DNA of 64,000 nt from a virus (Duplodnaviria; Heunggongvirae; Uroviricota; Caudoviricetes). Below the pieces are notes generated by a model, which saw only the letters and a program-made list of their open reading frames with translations, did no database searches and was not told the DNA's origin. Location of the stretch: IMG/VR virus record IMGVR_UViG_3300007747_000008, positions 109,828 to 173,827 of that record, one strand, 5' to 3'. Shown here piece after piece: positions 4,455 through 42,069 of this stretch. Position 1 is the first letter of the stretch. The number at the start of each line of letters is the position of its first letter. The position numbers and the translations under genes were made by a program.

Positions 4455-4483
4455 GGGACAGAAGAGGCTTAATGTGATATAAT
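4455..4483 (+). promoter_or_regulatory. Promoter of the repeated class GGGACA-N17-TGaTATAAT
   Basis: GGGACA at 4455, a 17-bp spacer, and the extended -10 TGTGATATAAT at 4473-4483. Confidence 0.5.
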
Positions 4484-11842: not shown

Positions 11843-14005
<2,163 letters not shown>

Positions 14006-14006
<1 letters not shown>

Positions 14007-16618
14007 TGCCAAGTAAATCTAAAGCACAAGCTAGATTCATGGCAGCAGCAGCACATAACCCAGACTTTGCTAAAAAGGCTGGGATTAGTACTGGTGCAGC
14101 TAAAGAATGGAATCAAGCAGATAAAAAACAAGGAACTCTCAAAAAGGGTTCAGATAAACCAGAACATGTAACTGAAGAAGAGATACTTGATGAAGCAAGT
14201 GGTGTTGGTATCTTTCCAGTACCGCCAAGTTCTTTGAAACTAATGCAAAAATATGCTTCTTCTATTGTATTGACTTATGCTTATAAATCATTCCAACAGA
14301 TGCAGAAAAATACAGATGATGATTTAGATCAACTTGTTGCTTCTAAGATTCTGCCGTTCTTAAAACGTTTCCAACAAAAATATGGTGCCCAAGTACTGAA
14401 TGATGCTAGTCTGCGTAAGTATGTGAATCAAAGTATTAAGATGCCAATTGACCATGCTGCCATTATGCGTGAGTTACCTAAGTCTATGCAAAATGAAAAA
14501 GTACAATCTTTTATACAAAAAATGAATGTATTCGTAACGTTTGACACTAATTATTATGACAACAGAGCTGGCGGTCACAAAGAGACAGTAAATGATAATA
14601 CATCTGATATTGTGTTATCATTAAAACCCGAATACTATCAATTCACCACAACAAATGGTACTGACGGAATCCAAAAGACAATGCAAAGTATGGATTACTT
14701 TTTGGGTTCACTTGAACATGAAATGCAACATGCATTCCAACAAATAGTGACTAAAAGACTTAGTTCTGCCAAAGATGCCAACGTAGCGAGAAAAAAAGAT
14801 TATAGTGATATGCAAGATTCTTATCATGCAAGTGGTGTTGAATTTGGTCCACAAACAAAAGATATGATAAACGCTGGAATTTTATGGTTAGATAACCAAA
14901 AAGATAATAACGAATTAAGTGGTAATATTAACCGTGATATTCAAGGTGCAATCAAACATGCATTTGAACGTTTATCTCATGGTCAAGGTAAGGTGTATCA
15001 AGCCTTAAAAAATTATAAAGAAGATGCTAATGCCAAAAAGCATATGGTTTTAATTTACAAAGGACTTGTTAAACATTATCAACAAATGGAAAACGAAGTT
15101 GATTCAGAATTGGATTTAGAACCTAAAGATGTTGATGGTGGCGAGTCTCGTTTATACAATTCTACAACAAAAGGACCAGACCAAGATGCAGATAAAAATG
15201 ATCCGATGGTTCAACTTTATCGTGCTATGGAATCTAAAAACAATTTAAAACCAAGTGACGTTGAGGAAGAACGTATACATGGAAAAAGACCAGATGACTA
15301 CACTAATCCATACAACAACCTTCATTCAATTGTTTATCACCTAGATGATGGTGGAATAGTACGGTTCATGAAACATAATGGTAATATTCTGATTACTGCG
15401 TGGGAGAGTCGTTTTTCAGAAAGTGAACCTATTAATATCGATGTTCCTGTTGATAAAATACAAATTATGTTGGACTATATTACTTGGTTTAAATCATTTA
15501 ACATGACCGACCGTTTTATCAAAGAACTAGCTCACAAGATAGACGGTTCAGAAATGGACATTGAAGAAATTGCTGATGCTTTTGGTGGATGGTACAATAA
15601 TGCTATTAAGAAAATTGGTGCACAACCCGAAGGTAAAAATCTAGATGCTTCACTTGATGAAGGTACGCTTTATATTCGATTCCAAGGGCTTCGTTATCCA
15701 ATATATATGCAAGCTGGATATAGAGATGGGGTTCAAATTGACAATGCAGAATCATACAATACCATAACTGGAATTACCTATCAGGATTTAGAACAAGTAA
15801 TGACTCGTCTATTCGAGATTTATCTAGAAAGTACCGATAGACAATTTAACAGGATATTCAAAAATATGGATAAAAAATTAACACCCGATAGTCTTGAAAA
15901 TATATGGGAATATGTTCAAGAATCATCCAAAAAGCCTGTAGAAGAATCAAGTATGCGTGGTTTTATGGATTTAGTACAGGATGCTGAAATAGCTGATGAT
16001 ATTGATCAAGCTGACAAGAGTACTCAAATTAGTAGAGATACCCAAAATAAAAAATTAGGTAAAACTACCAATTCACTAAATCAACTTGGTGAAGATGAAG
16101 AGTTGAATGAGATGCCACAGCGTTTTGATGCGTTTGCCAACCAAGATCGTGATGAATTTGTTGATAAGTCTGCTGAAATGACAGGTAAGCATAATATGGT
16201 TCCTTTTGCTCAACATGACGGATTTGATGTCATGAGAATTAAAAATGGTTCAGGATTTATTGCATACGATAAACAAGGTAAGCAAGTAGCATTATTAAGT
16301 GGTCATATAAGTAATAATGCGGTCGTTGGTGTACCTAATGTATTCGTAGAAAGTGCTGTTGCAGCAAAAAGCAATGTTAAAGGTGTTGTGTATCAAATGT
16401 ACATGGATATCTTAAATGCTGGATATTCAATACTTAGTGATGGTTTACATAGTGATGATGCAATCAAGTTCTGGACTAGATTGCTAACAAATCATACTGT
16501 ATATGTTGTAGGGGACGGTGAAGTACTAACACGTGCAACTCCAGAGAAAGTACACAAGTATTGGAGTGATGATGAATATAGCCCTAGTGCTGAGTTGAGG
16601 TTACTCTTGACGAAATAA
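14006..16618 (+). CDS. Large protein (870 aa): DUF3008-like N-terminus plus an HExxH domain, paralogue of 12414-14006
   Basis: The N-terminus SKAQARFMAAAAHNPDFAKKAGISTGAAKEW resembles DUF3008. LEHEMQHAFQ and YHASGVEFGPQT follow. TAATG coupling to the upstream gene. Confidence 0.55.
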
Positions 16619-29990: not shown

Positions 29991-31127
29991 ATGTCAGAGA
30001 AAGATATCACTCCAGCAGCTAAGAAAACAACTCGCACTCGTAAAGCTACTACCAAGACTAAAGCAAAAGAGAAAGATGTTGCCATGAATGAAACGTTTGA
30101 GCAGTCTGAAAAACAGCTTCCTTCAATTCGTACTGGACGTGGTGAAGCTCTTGCGTTAACTGTAACCAACATCAATAACTTGGGTATGGATGCGGGTAGT
30201 GGTATTTCAGTACTGAACGACCAAATTCTTAACCGTGTTAAAGTTGCAGATAGTGGTGAATTCGGTCAGAGTGTTAATAGCATTCTTGCGTTGACACGTA
30301 GTGTTAATATTGAAAAGCTTGGTACACCACCAACTGGCGTACTATCCAAGTTGTTTGGCTTTGTGCGTAGTGCTAAGCGTCAAGTAACTGACCAACTTAA
30401 TACAAGTTATGATCAAATCCAAGAGATTGTTAAAACTCTTGATGGTGGTGTAGCTCGTATGCAAGATGAAGAACGTTGGTTGGTACAAGTTTATGATGCA
30501 AATATCGTATACTTGAAAGAATTGAAAACAACATTGATCAATATCGATGAAGTACTTGAGCCACAAGAAGAAATTCTTAACAATATGCGTGGCAGTACTG
30601 AAATTACCGTTGAAACATTTGAAGAACAAAAACTAATTGTTGATGCATTGAGCAAACAGGCTGACAAAGTACGTCGCTTGATTCAATTGTGCCAACTAAT
30701 GGCACCACAGATCATGTCCATGCGTAAGGTTAACTCCAATACTCATGAGAAGTTCCAGACTCTTATTACCACGACTATTCCAGCGTGGAAATCACAGATG
30801 AGCCTTGGTTTGATCAGTGATGCCCAGAAGAAAGATAATGAGCTTTCTGATAACATTGACAACCATACTAACTTGTTACTTTCTCAGAATGCAGAGACTG
30901 TATCTAAGAACATGGTTGACTCAGCTAAATCTAACCAACGTTCGGTGATTGACTTGGATACATTACGTATTGTACAAAACACCATGCTCAAAGGTATCAA
31001 CGATACCATTGCAATTGAGCAAAGTGGTGCAGCAGAACGTGCTAAAGCAAAACTTGAGATGGAAAAAATGGATCAAGAATTGAAACATGCACTACTAGAG
31101 ATTTCAAACAAAACAAACAAAAAGTAA
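29991..31127 (+). CDS. TelA-like protein (toxic-anion resistance, TelA family)
   Basis: Collinear with B. subtilis YceH/TelA: LFGFVRSAKR, DQIQEIVKTL, WLVQVYDANIVYLKEL, TTIPAWKSQ and IDLDTLRIVQ. Confidence 0.75.
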   Translation: MSEKDITPAAKKTTRTRKATTKTKAKEKDVAMNETFEQSEKQLPSIRTGRGEALALTVTNINNLGMDAGSGISVLNDQILNRVKVADSGEFGQSVNSILALTRSVNIEKLGTPPTGVLSKLFGFVRSAKRQVTDQLNTSYDQIQEIVKTLDGGVARMQDEERWLVQVYDANIVYLKELKTTLINIDEVLEPQEEILNNMRGSTEITVETFEEQKLIVDALSKQADKVRRLIQLCQLMAPQIMSMRKVNSNTHEKFQTLITTTIPAWKSQMSLGLISDAQKKDNELSDNIDNHTNLLLSQNAETVSKNMVDSAKSNQRSVIDLDTLRIVQNTMLKGINDTIAIEQSGAAERAKAKLEMEKMDQELKHALLEISNKTNKK

Positions 31128-31145
31128 TTTATTAAAAACAACATA

Positions 31146-31171
31146 AAGGAGTCTTCGGACTCCTTTTTTCA
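31146..31171 (+). terminator. Rho-independent terminator with a UUCG tetraloop
   Basis: AAAGGAGTC-TTCG-GACTCCTTT followed by TTT. Confidence 0.65.
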
Positions 31172-31183
31172 TAGGAGTAATTT

Positions 31184-31369
31184 ATGAGTGCTATTACCGA
31201 AGACCGAATTCGAGAAATAATTAAAGAAGTTGTTCGTGAGGAACTACAAAATTTATCAATTTCAGTTGATTCCAGTACTGAATCAATTGATGGTGAATAT
31301 ATTAAATTTCTAACTGGTGTTTGTTTATCTTTAAAAGACGAAGTTATATCATGTGCAGATGGGTGGTGA
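31184..31369 (+). CDS. Hypothetical small protein
   Basis: ORF. Confidence 0.4.
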   Translation: MSAITEDRIREIIKEVVREELQNLSISVDSSTESIDGEYIKFLTGVCLSLKDEVISCADGW

Positions 31370-31571
31370 ACATATGGGGATCCCATCATACTACAAATAT
31401 GATCCTACCAATAAGAATCGTAGGAAAAAATTAAAAGAACGGGCAAAAAAATTGGTTGATAAAATGGACATGCCCAACAACCAAAAGGTATTTTTAAAAC
31501 AAAGTCTAATGTCTATACTTCAGGAATATGCTGAACTATGGGAAAGTAGACCAACTAAGGAAAACAAATGA
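31353..31571 (+). CDS. Hypothetical small basic protein
   Basis: ORF. Confidence 0.4.
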   Translation: MQMGGEHMGIPSYYKYDPTNKNRRKKLKERAKKLVDKMDMPNNQKVFLKQSLMSILQEYAELWESRPTKENK

Positions 31572-32254
31572 AACAACGATTAGATTCAACGATTGATATA
31601 GAAACTCTAGCCATTCCAGAAACCAGTGGTTATGATATTGTAATTCCAAACTACGCTATTGTTCGAGTACCTGAAACACCTGAAACTTATGAGTTGGAAT
31701 GGATGTATGTACAAATGCCAATCCAGCCACAGTTAGATAAAGGTTTAGCGGTATCAGCTTCGTGTATGTCCTTCTGGTTTGATCGATGTGCAGAATTTCA
31801 ACCAAAAGCACTTGATGAAATGAAGAAATCATTTAAAGGTACAGTTCCTACAATTCGACGTAGTTATTTAAACGGTATCGAATTACCATGTGATGACCCT
31901 TCATTGGAAGTTGAGAAATTCATTAATGGTGATGATAATTTGTATGATGGTAAAATTTGGGGAAATGGGTGCAACTTCGATTGTAGTATTCTCCAAGCCA
32001 ATCATCTCAAGATGTTCAACAACGCTAAAATGTGGCACTACGCAGCCCCACAGAACGCAAGAAGCCTTAAAGACTTGCTAAGTGAAGACGAGCGTGATGA
32101 AATGGATCGCATCGTGGAGGACTATCTAGGGCGGTTTGAGACAACCACCCGTGTAATGCACGGAATGGCAAACCTAGAACTTCATCACCCATTGTATGAT
32201 GCGGCACGTGAAGCATTGCAGGTTTCATATTGCCGGAATATGAAAGCAGGTTGA
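31568..32254 (+). CDS. dexA: DexA-like 3'-5' exonuclease (DEDD family)
   Basis: N-terminal IDIETLA (Exo I motif), with GNGCNFDCSIL and HHPLYDA downstream. Confidence 0.55.
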   Translation: MKQRLDSTIDIETLAIPETSGYDIVIPNYAIVRVPETPETYELEWMYVQMPIQPQLDKGLAVSASCMSFWFDRCAEFQPKALDEMKKSFKGTVPTIRRSYLNGIELPCDDPSLEVEKFINGDDNLYDGKIWGNGCNFDCSILQANHLKMFNNAKMWHYAAPQNARSLKDLLSEDERDEMDRIVEDYLGRFETTTRVMHGMANLELHHPLYDAAREALQVSYCRNMKAG

Positions 32255-35382: not shown

Positions 35383-35760
35383 ATGATCTGGATTACTTTA
35401 ATTACCATCGTTACATTATATGTATTGTACTTCACATTTCGTCTACTATCTGGTATACAAGGTGTTGTACAGAAAACAGAAACAAATTCATCATTTGGGT
35501 TTATTTTTGATTACCCAAAATCAAGTTCAGTTTTAATTCTAGTAATACTGGCTTTGAGTTTATTCCAGTACAAAAATCATATTTACAACATGTATGATTG
35601 TAGTGTACAGAAAACTATTCACAAAGCAGCAAATAGTGAGTACTCATGGTATAATGGAGAGTGCAACTTCCAAGATAAAAATGGAGTATTCATCAATATG
35701 AAGCGTGTACGTGGTCTACCAGAAGGTACAGTAGATACGTCTGACAACGATCATAACTAA
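35383..35760 (+). CDS. Small membrane protein
   Basis: Two hydrophobic segments. Confidence 0.45.
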   Translation: MIWITLITIVTLYVLYFTFRLLSGIQGVVQKTETNSSFGFIFDYPKSSSVLILVILALSLFQYKNHIYNMYDCSVQKTIHKAANSEYSWYNGECNFQDKNGVFINMKRVRGLPEGTVDTSDNDHN

Positions 35761-35769
35761 GGAGATTAT

Positions 35770-36264
35770 ATGTTTGAATGGGATCATAAACAACACTATG
35801 ATCCTACCGAAGACGGTGTAACTCATATTAATACATATAGTAAGGGTAAAACCGAATTGGGGAGGATGCTATCAAATTTTGCATACTCCCCTTTTGTATA
35901 TGCACCATATGGAAAGTTTAATTCAGTTGAAGGATTTTACTATTGGTACTTAACTGGTCAAAAACATGATGACTTGAGAACATTAAGCGGAACATATGCA
36001 AAGGTTCAAGGTAGGAAGTATGAAGTTGATAGGACTGAACATGTTCTATCGGAAGATACAATAGAAATAATGCAAGGTGCAATGATATGCAAGATTGCAC
36101 AGAATAAAAAACTACAAGAAATGTTAATTTCCAGTACTCTTGAATTTACACATTATTATGTGTATTTTGGTAAAGTCATAAATCCATTTGATGGTTATGA
36201 TTGGTTTTCTGATACACTGGAGGATATAAGAACAGCTTTAAAATCTGGGACAGATGACATTTAA
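35770..36264 (+). CDS. NADAR/YbiA-like (DUF1768) protein, putative ADP-ribose N-glycohydrolase
   Basis: LSNFA, YGKFNSVEGFYYWYLTGQ (YbiA: DGKTWPTSEHYFQAQKF) and the helix IMQGAMICKIAQNKKLQEML. Confidence 0.6.
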   Translation: MFEWDHKQHYDPTEDGVTHINTYSKGKTELGRMLSNFAYSPFVYAPYGKFNSVEGFYYWYLTGQKHDDLRTLSGTYAKVQGRKYEVDRTEHVLSEDTIEIMQGAMICKIAQNKKLQEMLISSTLEFTHYYVYFGKVINPFDGYDWFSDTLEDIRTALKSGTDDI

Positions 36265-36275
36265 TGTGATATAAT
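36247..36275 (+). promoter_or_regulatory. GGGACA-N17-TGTGATATAAT promoter driving the ncRNA
   Basis: GGGACA at 36247 and TATAAT at 36270-36275. No ORF is adjacent. Confidence 0.55.
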
Positions 36276-36281
36276 ATTAGA

Positions 36282-36703
36282 ATAATTGTGGATGCGTTAG
36301 CATATGATTTAAACCTAGTCCCTCGAAAAGTAGAGGGTAGATGAGCATGACCACACATGCGAAGTGCAGATGAAACCCGTACGCGGCAATGTGGCACTCT
36401 AAATGGACACGTAAGGCACGTTAAGTCCACTTGATAGACATATGAGGTCACTCACCAAAATGCTAAGGGAGACGCTTAGGCGTCACATACAAGGCTTGTT
36501 CGAATAGGCTTTGTGTGAGTGTAGTAAGACTACGACCGTTGCACATGACCGTGATAGGGAGAAACAGAGCAACCCGCTTCCGTTCCCTGACCATTTTAGT
36601 ACGCTATAGTTGCGTCTAAAATTCAGAGAAATTCACGATTCGAAAATTCCGAGGCTACCAGCGTCAGAACATTAATTCAGTACATTAAGTTGTACTTTTT
36701 TAT
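36282..36703 (+). ncRNA. Structured ncRNA of about 420 nt, family unknown
   Basis: GC content is locally raised. Numerous perfect hairpins are present (CCCTC..GAGGG, GGACACGT..ACGTnnGTCC, CTAAG..CTTAG, GTAGT..ACTAC). The 5' end GATGC..TAGC can pair with the 3' end GCTA..GCGTC. It has its own promoter and terminator and no ORF of 60 aa or more. Confidence 0.55.
36678..36703 (+). terminator. Rho-independent terminator ending the ncRNA
   Basis: AGTACA-TTAAGT-TGTACT followed by TTTTTTATT. Confidence 0.6.
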
Positions 36704-36866
36704 TGTCTTCAGTCCCCCAGTGGGGGATGAAATTGCCTCTCAAACCTCGTCAGTATTAAAAGTACAATAATGAATTGAGTTACGATAATACGAACGGAGT
36801 GAGTATTAAGAGTAACGAGAATTCTTTGGCTATCGAAGATAGACAAATTATAACTTAGGAAACAAT

Positions 36867-37160
36867 ATGATTACAGCAAAAGAATTACATGACAAAGCAA
36901 ATGAGATTGGTGATACATACATACCCGAATCGGTAATTGATTCTATGGCTGATGCCGCAAAAAAAGGATTGTACTCAATTACATTATTAGCAGATGCTGA
37001 TTTTGGAGTTGAGTGCAGAGTGAATTCTGATGCACCACAGCAACATGCTGAGTTCGATAGAATTAAAAAATGTCTAGAATCACATGGATATACAGTTGAA
37101 TTTTTATATCCATACAGTGATAATAGATTCCCTATTGTTGGAGTAATAGTGTCATGGTAA
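36867..37160 (+). CDS. Hypothetical protein
   Basis: ORF. Confidence 0.5.
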   Translation: MITAKELHDKANEIGDTYIPESVIDSMADAAKKGLYSITLLADADFGVECRVNSDAPQQHAEFDRIKKCLESHGYTVEFLYPYSDNRFPIVGVIVSW

Positions 37161-37453
37161 CTGTACAATCATTACTAAACGAACTAAACTCACTATTTTC
37201 GGGTTGGGAAGAATCAGGACACCCATATACGGATGATATACATGTTAGTCATGAACATTTTTCTGTTACGTATTCAGCACGATATAAAGATTACAGATCA
37301 GTGAGTAATGTAATTACATTTGATGAAACCATACTTAAAGGATATAGTGCTGTTTCAGCAACTGAATCAGTACGTGACTTAAAGAAACAGATAAAAGAAC
37401 AATTAGATTTAATTAAATCTATATATGAATCAATGGAAGGTAATTATGATTGA
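37154..37453 (+). CDS. Hypothetical protein
   Basis: ORF. Confidence 0.45.
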   Translation: MVTVQSLLNELNSLFSGWEESGHPYTDDIHVSHEHFSVTYSARYKDYRSVSNVITFDETILKGYSAVSATESVRDLKKQIKEQLDLIKSIYESMEGNYD

Positions 37454-38414
37454 CAAGAAAAATCGTGCAATTGGTGCGTTAGTAGGACTTGCAGTAGGTG
37501 ATGCAGTTGGAACAACTTTAGAATTTAAAGAACGTGATAGTGAAAATATCACAGATATGGTCGGTGGTGGTCCTTTTCAGTTAGAACCGGGGCAGTGGAC
37601 TGATGATACAAGTATGGCATTATGCTTAGGCTATGCATTACTCAAAGGACATGAAATTAATAGTATTGATTGGGCAACTGAACAACTAAGTAATTACCAA
37701 AACTGGTATAAAAATGGATATTGTAGTTCCAATGGCTATTGTTTTGATATCGGTGGTACTACTAGAACTGCAATTCAAAATTTTATTAAATCCGGGTCAT
37801 TAACCAATAATAGCCATTTCTTAGATTCAGGTAATGGTAGCTTGATGCGTCTAGCTCCTATTCCGATTTATTACAATGCTGTTTATGGCGTAGAAAAGTA
37901 CAATACCTTAGTACAAGCAGCGGTTATGAGTAGTATAACAACCCATGCAAGTTCATTGTGTATTCAATCATGTATTGCATTTGCCACATTACTTAATCGA
38001 GCTATTAATGGTATTCAAATTCCAGATGGTGTAGAACCATCATCCAGTACTAAAGGTTCTTTACTTACATTGCCTGAACAAATCTGGGAATTGACCGGTG
38101 TGAATGAGACATTGGTTATTGACATTATGAATGGATCTTATAAAACCAAAACTCGTGACCAGATCAGAAGTTCGGGATATGTGATTGATTCACTAGAAGC
38201 TGCTTTGTGGGCATTCTACAGTACTGACAACTTTAAAGATGCAATCTTATTAGCTGCAAACTTAGGTGATGATGCTGACACTGTAGCTGCAATTACCGGT
38301 CAGCTTGCCGGGGCATATTATGGCCTAGATGGTATCCCTACCGAGTGGGTACAGAAGATTACAAAGAAAGATGATATTTTAAAATTAGCAGAGGACTTGT
38401 ATAATGAAAATTGA
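37446..38414 (+). CDS. ADP-ribosylglycohydrolase (ARH/DraG family)
   Basis: GALVGLAVGDAVGT, GQWTDDTSMAL, GNGSLMRLAP and the C-terminal GDDADTVAAITGQLAGAYYG. Start chosen at the ATG preceded by a GGAAGG Shine-Dalgarno. Confidence 0.8.
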   Translation: MIDKKNRAIGALVGLAVGDAVGTTLEFKERDSENITDMVGGGPFQLEPGQWTDDTSMALCLGYALLKGHEINSIDWATEQLSNYQNWYKNGYCSSNGYCFDIGGTTRTAIQNFIKSGSLTNNSHFLDSGNGSLMRLAPIPIYYNAVYGVEKYNTLVQAAVMSSITTHASSLCIQSCIAFATLLNRAINGIQIPDGVEPSSSTKGSLLTLPEQIWELTGVNETLVIDIMNGSYKTKTRDQIRSSGYVIDSLEAALWAFYSTDNFKDAILLAANLGDDADTVAAITGQLAGAYYGLDGIPTEWVQKITKKDDILKLAEDLYNEN

Positions 38415-38763
38415 GAATGTTATTTCAATGTTAAACTCTATTTCTGATACCACTAGTGGTTCTAATTTGCAATATCGCTTTGAAAAAGAAATATTGAACG
38501 ATGCTGAGTTTTCCATTAACCACATCTTCACTGATAAGAGACAAGCGGATTTTTACTATTCAGTACTTAAAGATATACCCAACAACGAATTAGAACTAAT
38601 AACTAGTACTACTTCGATATCAGAAAAAGTTCCATATGTTGCATATCTTCCAGAAATTACAATTCTTTTCAAGTACGTTATCACCCATAGTGAATTTCGT
38701 TATAATTTAAAATTTAAAAGTACGTTCAATAAAATCAAAGAGGGCTTTACATATGGGAATTAA
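38404..38763 (+). CDS. Hypothetical protein
   Basis: ORF. Confidence 0.45.
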   Translation: MKIENVISMLNSISDTTSGSNLQYRFEKEILNDAEFSINHIFTDKRQADFYYSVLKDIPNNELELITSTTSISEKVPYVAYLPEITILFKYVITHSEFRYNLKFKSTFNKIKEGFTYGN

Positions 38764-40698: not shown

Positions 40699-40789
40699 GG
40701 TAGGTTGGCTGAGTCGGCCTATAGCATCTGCCTACTAAGCAGAAGATGGAGAAATCCGTCCGTGGGTTCGAATCCCACACCTACCTCCA
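40699..40789 (+). tRNA. Type II (long variable arm) tRNA, Ser-like, with an apparent anticodon ACT
   Basis: Acceptor GGTAGGT/ACCTACC, a 3-bp D-stem, anticodon stem TCTGC/GCAGA with loop CTACTAA, a long variable arm, T-arm GTGGG-TTCGAAT-CCCAC, and an encoded CCA. Confidence 0.6.
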
Positions 40790-40806
40790 ACCAAAAGGAT
40801 CTAATA

Positions 40807-42069
40807 ATGGGAAGTTTTAACGCATCATGTGCAGTAAGTAAGTGTAGCATTAATCCCGGCGATCGAGTAAAATTAATCCCTATTGTAAGTCGAACATCTA
40901 TTCATCCAGATTTTGACAGCACTATGCATTTGGGTTTTGGGTGCTATACATACGATTATTTTCAATTCTTGGGATATCCTATGGATGCAACATATGCAGA
41001 TTATGGAAATTTTGAGATTGTTGAGAATGATGTTTCCGAATACAATCTAAGTATTATCAAGAAAAATTACACACAATCCATTCCACCAGAAGATGAAGAC
41101 GTTTCCTCGTATGACCGTAATGGTTATAATACAACAGCTAATGATCTTAATTGGGAAGTTATTGGTAATATGATTCATTTCGGCTCACTATTTTTAGATA
41201 GCTCTAAAGATATGACTAAGCGTAAATTTTTGGGATATTTCCCAGTGCATGAATCAGTCTATAACTTATTCATGGAATGCACCCCTGCGATGTATTTTGA
41301 CGAATCATACACAAATGTTCCATTTGTGAAGTATCTAAAAAAACAAATGGAAAAATATATTGGTGTACCAGATGAATTTGAAGCTGATATTACCAAATAC
41401 ATGGACCTTTATTCCAGTAAAATTGGGACTGTTAACAAATCTGGTGTTGTTGTTACGCCCGAAGACATATATGATCGTGCAGTAGCTATGGCTGAATATC
41501 GCCAAGAAAGCAACGACGAACGAAAAGATTACTCATATTCCAATAGTTCTAACGTCAAAAAAATATGTAAATTCCGTGAATTGGAATTGAAAAAAGAAAT
41601 TGATGAAGAATTTCTTCGTAGTGTCGTTTCACTTGATGCTGAATTATCATTCTTGATTATGGGGTTGTCAGCCTACAATATTCCAATTCTACCACCAATG
41701 ACTGCTGGACAAGAGTATGATAAAACTGACCACGCCGCTTTTCTAATCCGAATGGGTCAGGAAATGATGAACTTGCAAAAAACTGATAATAAAGAAAATT
41801 ACGATGAAGATGAATTAGTACTTAAACCTGTAATTAAAAATTATTTTGAAGTTTCCATGTCAGGATTAGTTACTGGTGCAAAAAATGACTGGAAACCTGA
41901 ACGCGGTAAAGAAAATCTAGTATTGATTGAAAAGTTTATTGCTGAGTACCCAGAAGGTGTATACCTAACAATGGATGAATTACAAAAGAGTGGTTATATT
42001 TCTATTCTTTCTGGTGTTGAATCAACTATGCTTGATTTTCTTTTCATTAATGATACAGTTAAGGAATAA
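40807..42069 (+). CDS. Hypothetical protein (420 aa)
   Basis: ORF. The six-frame start at 40705 lies inside the tRNA, so the ATG at 40807 is used. Confidence 0.55.
   Translation: MGSFNASCAVSKCSINPGDRVKLIPIVSRTSIHPDFDSTMHLGFGCYTYDYFQFLGYPMDATYADYGNFEIVENDVSEYNLSIIKKNYTQSIPPEDEDVSSYDRNGYNTTANDLNWEVIGNMIHFGSLFLDSSKDMTKRKFLGYFPVHESVYNLFMECTPAMYFDESYTNVPFVKYLKKQMEKYIGVPDEFEADITKYMDLYSSKIGTVNKSGVVVTPEDIYDRAVAMAEYRQESNDERKDYSYSNSSNVKKICKFRELELKKEIDEEFLRSVVSLDAELSFLIMGLSAYNIPILPPMTAGQEYDKTDHAAFLIRMGQEMMNLQKTDNKENYDEDELVLKPVIKNYFEVSMSGLVTGAKNDWKPERGKENLVLIEKFIAEYPEGVYLTMDELQKSGYISILSGVESTMLDFLFINDTVKE

Follow-up and report, generated by a model that had tools for sequence, protein, structure and literature searches.

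A predicted NADAR-fold protein and a DraG/Tri1-type ADP-ribosylglycohydrolase encoded on either side of a structured non-coding RNA in a jumbo phage

We analyzed a 64,000-nt stretch of viral DNA (positions 109,828 to 173,827 of IMG/VR record IMGVR_UViG_3300007747_000008; hereafter the window) and, within it, a locus that encodes a NADAR-like protein and an ADP-ribosylglycohydrolase (ARH) on either side of a structured non-coding RNA. The source phage is a ~350-kb jumbo myophage from a clade that includes Munch, fENko-Kae01, and the Asteriusvirus and Eneladusvirus phages, and positions 35590-36870 of the window share ~84% identity with Klebsiella phage fENko-Kae01 and with the Salmonella phages Munch, 7t3, SE_PL, and PHA46. 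Every gene around the locus is on the + strand, and the order, 5' to 3', is the NADAR-like open reading frame (ORF), a 602-nt stretch without a plausible ORF (36265-36866), an ORF of 97 amino acids (aa), a 99-aa ORF, and the ARH ORF (Table 1). A preliminary description of the locus had given the coordinates and strand of the NADAR-like and ARH ORFs correctly; its statement that nothing but the RNA lies between the two genes is wrong, since the two small ORFs are located there as well. The reading that we favor, tentatively and with somewhat less than even confidence, is that the locus carries two independent 'eraser' genes in a variable accessory stretch, and that these form neither an operon nor an obligate pair.

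Table 1. Features of the locus, in window coordinates.
Feature	Position	Strand	Remarks
NADAR-fold gene (predicted), 164 aa	35770..36264	+	probable phage (His-type) variant without the lysine seven residues after the conserved Glu; last gene of upstream string
Putative extended -10 promoter TGTGATATAAT for non-coding RNA	36265..36275	+	recurrent motif, conserved in relatives
Structured non-coding RNA, ~420 nt	36283..36702	+	conserved; compensatory changes; no Rfam match
Terminator-like hairpin and T-run, end of RNA	36679..36701	+	covarying stem
Leader with two hairpins, upstream of ARH gene string	36703..36866	+	conserved in 7/7 copies
Small ORF, 97 aa, strain-specific insertion	36867..37160	+	phrog_35148 match
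Small ORF, 99 aa, same insertion as 97-aa ORF	37154..37453	+	no family match
DraG/Tri1-type ADP-ribosylglycohydrolase (ARH), 322 aa	37446..38414	+	Pfam PF03747, Tri1, phrog_6572

Judged by its sequence, the ARH is unambiguously a member of its family, of textbook DraG/Tri1 type. It matches Pfam ADP_ribosyl_GH (PF03747) with E=5.6e-70 and 236.7 bits (cutoff 26.2) over profile positions 1-287 of 287, and it matches phrog_6572, 'ADP-ribosylglycohydrolase', with E=1.9e-79. Its best solved relative is Serratia Tri1 (6dre; E=1.5e-76, 260 bits, ARH residues 6-319 aligned), and the next are Thermus ARH, Listeria Lmo0067, and DraG. DraG and Tri1 are defined by an E-D-D catalytic and metal-binding set (E28, D60, and D97 in DraG; PMC8120803); the phage protein carries this set as E26 (in TLEF), D53/D54 (WTDDT), and D101 (CFDIGG), together with a C-terminal D-x-x-D-T metal site at D275/D278/T279 (GDDADT), and all of these residues are aligned identically in Tri1. 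The motifs quoted in the preliminary description are all found in the ORF (GLAVGDAVG at residues 14-22, GQWTDDTS at 49-56, GNGSLMRLAP at 129-138, and GDDADTVAAITGQLAGAYYG at 274-293), and its ARH/DraG-family call is borne out by the full-length Pfam match and the complete set of catalytic and metal-binding residues. The likely start is at 37446, where a GGAAGG ribosome-binding site precedes an ATG that overlaps the stop of the 99-aa ORF. This start corresponds to approximately residue 65-70 of Tri1, and, because the alignment begins at Tri1 residue 70 and ARH residue 6, the phage protein is without the N-terminal extension of Tri1. Bacterial homologues number more than 8,000 at E<1e-30 and ~50% identity. 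Phage homologues are found in 32 records. Of these, 14 (13 distinct genomes) belong to this jumbo clade, and the others come from a few T4-like phages of Cronobacter and Citrobacter, from Bacillus phage G, and from some Streptomyces phages; GenBank already labels the protein ADP-ribosylglycohydrolase in records that include Munch and fENko.

Comparison with a metagenomic contig, L016, identifies two segments flanking the ARH gene that are present in the window and absent from the contig. The contig is 99.7% identical to the window up to position 36895 and lacks 36896-37450, a 555-nt block that contains the 99-aa ORF entirely and the 97-aa ORF for the most part and that is inserted inside the 5' end of the ARH gene. 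On the contig, the ARH begins MITAKELHDKKNRA, and the 97-aa ORF of the window uses the sequence that there serves as the start and first 9 codons of the ARH gene. The block appears to have taken over the ribosome-binding site and first nine codons of the ARH gene and to have supplied a new start, ATGATTGACAAGAAA, at its right end. The 97-aa ORF matches phrog_35148 (E=1.9e-10; no function listed) and is absent from Munch, fENko, and the contig; the 99-aa ORF, the start of which overlaps the 97-aa ORF and the stop of which overlaps the ARH gene, has no family match in Pfam or PHROGs. The second segment missing from the contig, 38413-38738 (326 nt), contains most of a 119-aa ORF located just after the ARH gene. 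Because both flanking segments, of 555 nt and 326 nt, are absent from the contig, the surroundings of the ARH gene would fit an accessory-gene hotspot.

For the NADAR-like protein, we collected 68 homologues, 53 of which were aligned to build a family profile. The profile matches the NADAR of P. nicotianae (8bau) with E=2.9e-4 and YbiA with E=0.016; hhalign gives the family a probability of 94.6% against T4 gp30.3/AdfN and 84.7% against YbiA; an AlphaFold2 model computed from the alignment has a predicted local distance difference test (pLDDT) score of 92.2; and Foldseek searches with the protein against viral models return its own family first and then proteins named NADAR. Because the family profile, hhalign, AlphaFold2, and Foldseek results agree, the prediction that the protein has the YbiA/NADAR alpha+beta fold is solid. 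Among the 53 homologues, Pfam NADAR gives weak matches in only 8 (best 4.9e-4), and PF08010, the T4 gp30.3/AdfN type, gives weak matches in 10; a phmmer search of PDB with the single NADAR-like sequence returned nothing real, the only hits being spurious matches to HslU (E=1.7). The earlier assignment of this ORF to NADAR holds for the fold and does not extend to a sequence match above the Pfam threshold, and the YbiA-like motif offered in its support is a loose match that does not include the key lysine.

The key positions of NADAR active sites have been defined in several enzymes: E88, K95, and D171 of E. coli C7 NADAR are equivalent to E43, K50, and E125 of P. nicotianae NADAR (PnNADAR), and T4 AdfN has E36 and K43 (PMC11543638, PMC11825919, PMC12945103). 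Phage NADARs have His at the site that is Glu or Asp in other NADARs (PMC11543638, PMC11825919). In the window protein, the ribose-positioning Glu is present as E54, which aligns with T4 E36 and with the YbiA Glu and is invariant in both the 53 and the 68 sequences, as are K78 and K108 across the same diverse sets; H128, invariant or nearly so, lies on the equivalent strand within 1 alignment column of the T4 His. K78 and R82 match K75 and R79 of PnNADAR, which shield the pyrophosphate; obvious equivalents of PnNADAR W89 and R93 were not found in the protein. The position seven residues after the Glu, occupied by lysine in the enzymes above, is L61. Three independent alignments concur that this position is hydrophobic or variable across the family, and the column has no conserved basic residue in 121 aligned family members. 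The Glu+7 lysine contacts the diphosphate and the adenine, and its mutation in E. coli C7 NADAR (K95) impairs hydrolysis of ADP-ribosylated guanine (guanine-ADPr) (PMC11543638); the K43A variant of T4 AdfN retains partial rescue (PMC11825919). Because this lysine is missing, although AdfN K43A partly works, we regard the family as a NADAR-fold, phage-type variant and not as a confirmed guanine-ADPr hydrolase, and a DarT1-type (guanine-ADPr) specificity appears doubtful. On alignment, the catalytic residues are complete for the ARH and include E54 for the NADAR-like protein, the Glu+7 lysine being the absentee.

The NADAR-like family belongs to phrog_652 (no function listed). A tblastn search finds it in 568 phage records, among them numerous Ackermannviridae, Vibrio phages, and jumbo phages, under the labels 'hypothetical', 'NADAR domain-containing protein', 'DUF1768', and 'N-glycosidase'. 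An exhaustive profile search yields ~2,200 clusters at 50% identity (E<=0.001), in which many proteins are 230-613 aa long. In 68 long NADAR-like proteins, the fusion partners are DUF4326 (25/68), YAcAr SLOG (20/68), DprA-type (8/68), DUF488 (9/68), and Macro (2/68). In Erwinia phage AH06 (locus L015, 1679-3355), a Macro gene and a small ORF are followed by a gene, labeled 'DNA processing protein A', for a fusion of a NADAR-like domain with YAcAr-SLOG. The surveys of NAD+/ADP-ribose networks of jumbo phages by Iyer, Burroughs, Anantharaman, and Aravind (PMC9503650, PMC7824862) likewise describe fusions of NADAR with SLOG, Macro, and DUF4326. The fusion partners lend independent contextual support to a predicted role of the family in ADP-ribose chemistry, and the same partners would also support a soluble ADP-ribose derivative, and not modified DNA, as the substrate. 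Neighborhoods of distant homologues contain a TerC/TerD/TelA context, a DUF4326 fusion, and a faint ART-PolyVal match 5 kb away, with no ARH. In one distant relative (L010), the NADAR-like gene is directly 3' of a TerC, TerD, TerD, TelA cluster; in the window, genes for TelA (toxic-anion resistance) and an Rv2179c-like 3'-5' exoribonuclease are located at 29991-32251 (+), a few kb upstream of the NADAR-like gene.

Between the two hydrolase genes, the motif TGTGATATAAT starts directly after the NADAR-like stop codon and looks like the standard extended -10 promoter of the phage. The exact 11-mer occurs 9 times on the + strand of the window (at 4473, 7004, 16688, 36265, 40680, 42999, 59387, 61024, and 61381), often ahead of a tRNA gene (three of these genes are directly preceded by it) or of an intergenic gene start; with at most 1 mismatch there are 14 matches, a number reached by 0 of 100 shuffles. 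In seven aligned copies from this and related phages, the -10 core and the T-G are invariant, with an invariant A 7 bases downstream of the core, and six of the seven have TGTGATATAAT exactly (the window copy among them) or with 1-2 base differences. The RNA that follows is 72-86% identical in Munch, fENko, EJP2, BF, and CBB, yet is non-coding; its folding z-score is -3.3, and a 7-sequence consensus fold has compensatory changes in 32 of 114 pairs. It is present in 3-5 copies per genome in 62 jumbo-phage records. One EJP2 copy adjoins a homing-endonuclease-like gene after gp46. Searches of Rfam, with gathering thresholds on the whole window and with E<=10 on 36100-37000, returned only tRNAs and a chance fluoride-riboswitch match (E=8.2). 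A candidate hammerhead core at GAUGAG...CGAA (36340-36364) was rejected, since its first two bases are wrong for such a core and none of the ribozyme families gave a score.

The RNA ends in a terminator-like hairpin, AGTAC...GTACT, and a run of six T; covariation of the stem is seen in BF, in CBB, and in the second EJP2 copy, and a consensus terminator scanner misses it because it is too AT-rich. Given the TGTGATATAAT motif at one end and the covarying terminator hairpin at the other, the ~420-nt RNA looks independently initiated and terminated, and the suggestion in the preliminary description that it is an independently transcribed, structured RNA is supported by its own promoter, its terminator, and its covarying fold. 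The leader that follows contains two hairpins, CCCCC-AGT-GGGGG at 36714-36726 and GGCTATC-GAA-GATAGAC at 36828-36844, the second of which covaries (CTATC/GATAG, CAATC/GATTG, CATTC/GAATG); the leader may be a regulatory or processing element. The ARH gene string starts shortly after the second hairpin. No TGTGATATAAT promoter was found between the terminator and the ARH gene, which may be expressed by read-through or from an unrecognized promoter in the leader. The presence of a putative promoter and terminator between the NADAR-like gene and the ARH gene argues for separate transcription units.

The order NADAR-like gene, RNA, ARH gene recurs in Munch, fENko-Kae01, 7t3, SE_PL, PHA46, EJP2, and BF and in 8 IMG/VR contigs. 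In Munch and fENko, ~620 nt of non-coding sequence separate the NADAR-like gene from the ARH gene downstream; in EJP2, one small ORF precedes the ARH gene; and in BF and CBB, a 594-aa ORF is located between the NADAR-like gene and the non-coding block, which in BF is followed directly by the ARH gene. The elements also occur apart, with the RNA present and the ARH gene absent in CBB, GAP32, and Yersinia phage fHe-Yen9, and with the NADAR-like gene present and both RNA and ARH gene absent in PBECO4 and K64-1. The NADAR-like gene is core in the ~350-kb clade and the ARH gene is present in only part of it, and phage records with the one outnumber those with the other (568 vs. 32). Coordinate comparison places the ARH gene within ~500 nt downstream of an RNA copy in 13 of 13 ARH-bearing clade genomes.

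To quantify the linkage, 80 diverse IMG/VR loci with a NADAR-like gene, 13 from the clade and 67 distant, were searched over 6 kb on each side. An ARH gene was found at 8 of the 80, all of them on ~350-370-kb contigs and 53% or more identical to the window protein, and at 0 of the 67 distant loci. The non-coding element was found at 11 of the 13 clade loci and at none of the others; SLOG was found at 16 and Macro at 6 of the 80. Because the whole neighborhood is syntenic in the clade, adjacency carries little information, and the linkage, which would represent one ancestral arrangement, is weak evidence for functional coupling. The module proposed in the preliminary description, and the synteny on which it depends, hold as a gene order kept among phages of the ~350-kb clade; they do not hold as a linkage outside that single clade (0/67 loci) and probably do not hold as a single transcription unit.

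Searches for a partner transferase gave negative results. No ADP-ribosyltransferase (ART), Macro, Nudix, Sir2, or SLOG family was found in any + strand ORF of the window that is 70 aa or longer (95 ORFs); phmmer with T4 Alt as the query found nothing among the window's ORFs in all six frames; PADLOC gave no matches for the NADAR-like protein, the ARH, the two small ORFs, or the pair of large paralogues mentioned below; and no cognate ART is present next to a hydrolase within the window in the manner of DraT-DraG, Tre1-Tri1, or DarT1-NADAR. The two 'giant HExxH paralogues' at 12414-14006 and 14006-16618 (+), earlier put forward as possible injected effectors of ART type, must be discarded as such: they have no Pfam match, match no ART, and among PHROGs match only virion-structural ones (phrog_18596, E=1e-153; phrog_22033, E=6e-157). 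The rest of the window encodes, for example, ribonucleotide reductase, a Dda-like helicase, topoisomerase II, a clamp loader, TelA, and four tRNAs, and its + strand ORFs between 2063 and 63740 include homologues of IF3 (N and C domains), peptidyl-tRNA hydrolase PTH2, ClpS, Cpn10, DHFR, RNase H, a PRA-PH-like pyrophosphohydrolase, and a 5'-nucleotidase. A mechanically listed 454-aa ORF with a TTG start (40705-42069) overlaps the tRNA-Ser at 40699-40789; the true start of this gene is probably downstream, near 40807.

According to the hypothesis that the locus holds two independent erasers, the NADAR-like protein would be a stand-alone, phage-type N-glycosidase that keeps E54, H128 (probably in place of the second acidic residue), K78, and R82; its most likely reaction is cleavage of the N-glycosidic bond of an ADP-ribosyl (or related ribosyl) group, with either a nucleic-acid base, as for T4 AdfN, or a soluble ADP-ribose derivative as the substrate. 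The ARH would be a metal-dependent hydrolase of DraG/Tri1 type acting on arginine side chains, from which it would strip mono-ADP-ribose, and, because it has neither a toxin-occluding extension nor a nearby partner transferase, it may have an 'orphan immunity' role and undo ADP-ribosylation imposed by a transferase of the host or of a competitor. An anti-defense role is plausible. The more specific idea in the preliminary description, that the locus counters DarT-like toxins, has a phage precedent (T4 AdfN vs. DarTG1; PMC11825919), and the DarT1 specificity that it implies is doubtful for a protein with Leu in place of the lysine. Several points weigh against the two-eraser hypothesis. The NADAR-like ORF matches Pfam NADAR (PF08719/DUF1768) with only E=0.016 and 15.9 bits, under the cutoff of 35.1; the family is missing the Glu+7 lysine, which E. 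coli C7 NADAR (as K95) requires in order to hydrolyze guanine-ADPr efficiently (PMC11543638); the literature searched yielded no biochemical data on either protein or on close homologues; a phage transferase could possibly lie elsewhere in the genome, ~290 kb of which is outside the window; and the gene order is kept between the window and BF across genus-level divergence (~55% amino-acid identity for both proteins), which could reflect some functional coupling and not mere synteny.

Such coupling is the essence of the earlier proposal that the NADAR-like gene, the RNA, and the ARH gene form one unit, erasing the marks of one defense or coordinated marks on nucleic acid and protein. The order kept in clade phages and in eight contigs, the proximity of ARH gene and RNA in every ARH-bearing jumbo genome, and the lack of a TGTGATATAAT between RNA and ARH gene, such that the latter could be read through past a weak terminator, all speak for it; we nevertheless consider it distinctly unlikely, given that the linkage is a single ancestral arrangement seen at none of the 67 loci outside the clade, that the elements are found apart in five phages (PBECO4 and K64-1; CBB, GAP32, and fHe-Yen9), that the RNA has 3-5 copies per genome at unrelated loci, and that in BF and CBB, in a neighborhood syntenic overall, a 594-aa ORF parts the NADAR-like gene from the RNA. 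Somewhat less unlikely, though still short of the two-eraser hypothesis, is that the NADAR-like protein degrades soluble NAD+- or ADP-ribose-derived molecules (immune signals or toxic by-products), and not ADP-ribosylated DNA, as part of a SLOG/Macro/DUF4326 network to which the ARH is unrelated. The fusions to DUF4326 (25/68), YAcAr/DprA-type SLOG (~28/68), DUF488, and Macro, the occurrence of SLOG within 6 kb at 16 and of Macro at 6 of 80 viral loci, and the lack both of the diphosphate- and adenine-contacting lysine and of obvious W89/R93 equivalents, which suggests a remodeled ligand site, are consistent with such a substrate; however, every NADAR tested, including T4 gp30.3, acts on guanine-ADPr in DNA and RNA (PMC11125620, PMC11833690), and the window protein is stand-alone, has none of the fusion partners nearby, and keeps E54, H128, K78, and R82.

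Very unlikely, in our assessment, is that both hydrolases tune Alt/Mod-type ARTs of the phage itself through temporal reversal of marks on host proteins. T4 offers an analogy, since its NADAR gene, 30.3, is ~3 kb from alt, and, according to Iyer et al. (PMC9503650), T4-like NADARs are expressed early together with ARTs; however, the 95 window ORFs searched contain no ART, Macro, Sir2, or Nudix domain, the T4 Alt search of the window was negative, and the paralogues at 12.4-16.6 kb match only virion-structural PHROGs. The chance is slimmer still that lysine-less, His-type NADARs are a distinct enzyme class, with a substrate other than guanine-ADPr, that cooperates in this clade with an RNA initiated at +1A and with a Tri1-like hydrolase; one possibility under that reading would be a write/erase cycle of ADP-ribose-linked, NAD-capped-RNA ('RNAylation'-type) marks, and another possibility would be a two-pronged eraser of nucleic-acid and protein ADP-ribosylation by an undescribed host defense. 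Slimmest of all is the chance that, after loss of the lysine, the NADAR-like protein is catalytically dead or serves only for binding, for example of ADP-ribose or of a toxin. L61 replaces the lysine, no conserved basic residue stands there in the 121 aligned members, and mutating the lysine deprives E. coli C7 NADAR of efficient activity (PMC11543638); yet E54, K78, K108, and W145 are strictly invariant, and H128 is (nearly) so, at ~30% identity, as is typical of a working active site, T4 AdfN K43A is partly functional (PMC11825919), and the charge lost with the lysine could come from a nearly invariant R32 immediately ahead of the LSNF motif.

We conclude that the result is a correct annotation of new members of known families, among other grounds because the records of relatives already name the ARH, together with a generic but reasonable hypothesis, and that it is not a new system. 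Two of its points merit interest: the NADAR branch without the lysine and, as a separate matter, the unclassified RNA with several copies per genome. Phage NADARs have recently been shown to act in counter-defense against DarTG1, the versions tested being lysine-bearing only, and the lysine-less family is far more widespread in large phages than those versions; at stake is whether hundreds of Ackermannviridae and jumbo phages carry a NADAR counter-defense or act on a different ADP-ribose derivative. Phage Tri1-like hydrolases are rare (the 32 records above), and we found no study of them in the literature, nor anything specific on a phage ARH as an anti-defense factor or on the treatment of both genes in the fENko-Kae01 paper. 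If the 'orphan immunity' role is true, some hosts would fight these phages by arginine ADP-ribosylation of proteins.

Compared with canonical NADARs (YbiA, 2b3w; P. nicotianae NADAR, 8bau; G. lovleyi DarG1, 8bat; PMC11543638), the NADAR-like protein has only 18-19% identity, below the Pfam threshold; K50/K95 is missing, His probably replaces E125/D171, W89 and R93 are without clear equivalents, and there is no DarT1 neighbor. Compared with the surveys of Iyer et al., the fusion partners seen here are the same, whereas neither the NADAR-RNA-ARH arrangement nor the loss of the lysine is described in the available text (PMC9503650, PMC7824862). Compared with Tri1 (6dre), the closest solved relative of the ARH, the E-D-D set and the metal-binding motifs are the same. 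Serratia proteamaculans Tri1 is a DraG-like immunity protein that reverses the arginine ADP-ribosylation of FtsZ by Tre1 (PMC8120803); its N-terminal extension plugs the Tre1 active site, whereas the phage-encoded ARH has no such extension and no Tre1-like toxin gene nearby. The comparison with T4 gp30.3/AdfN is the most informative for the NADAR-like protein. AdfN is an orphan DarG1-like enzyme that strips ADP-ribose from guanine in phage DNA and thereby defeats DarTG1 (PMC11825919, PMC11125620), and rescue from DarTG1 by guanine de-ADP-ribosylation is known only for the T4, Bas32, and Bas60 NADARs (PMC11825919). The NADAR-like family differs from AdfN in having Leu in the window protein, and no conserved residue across the family, in place of T4 K43, in having extra conserved N-terminal residues (DG-THIN-YS...LGR) and an HYY motif, and in being often fused to DUF4326 or SLOG, and its role here is a prediction from sequence. 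The window protein and AdfN are alike in being small, stand-alone phage proteins with the NADAR fold (predicted here) and the LSNF motif, with E54 aligned with E36, with a His probably at the second acidic site, and without the N-terminal extension of DarG1. The likeness may extend to the other side of the locus, where the 'orphan immunity' logic proposed for the ARH resembles that of AdfN as an orphan antitoxin (PMC11825919).

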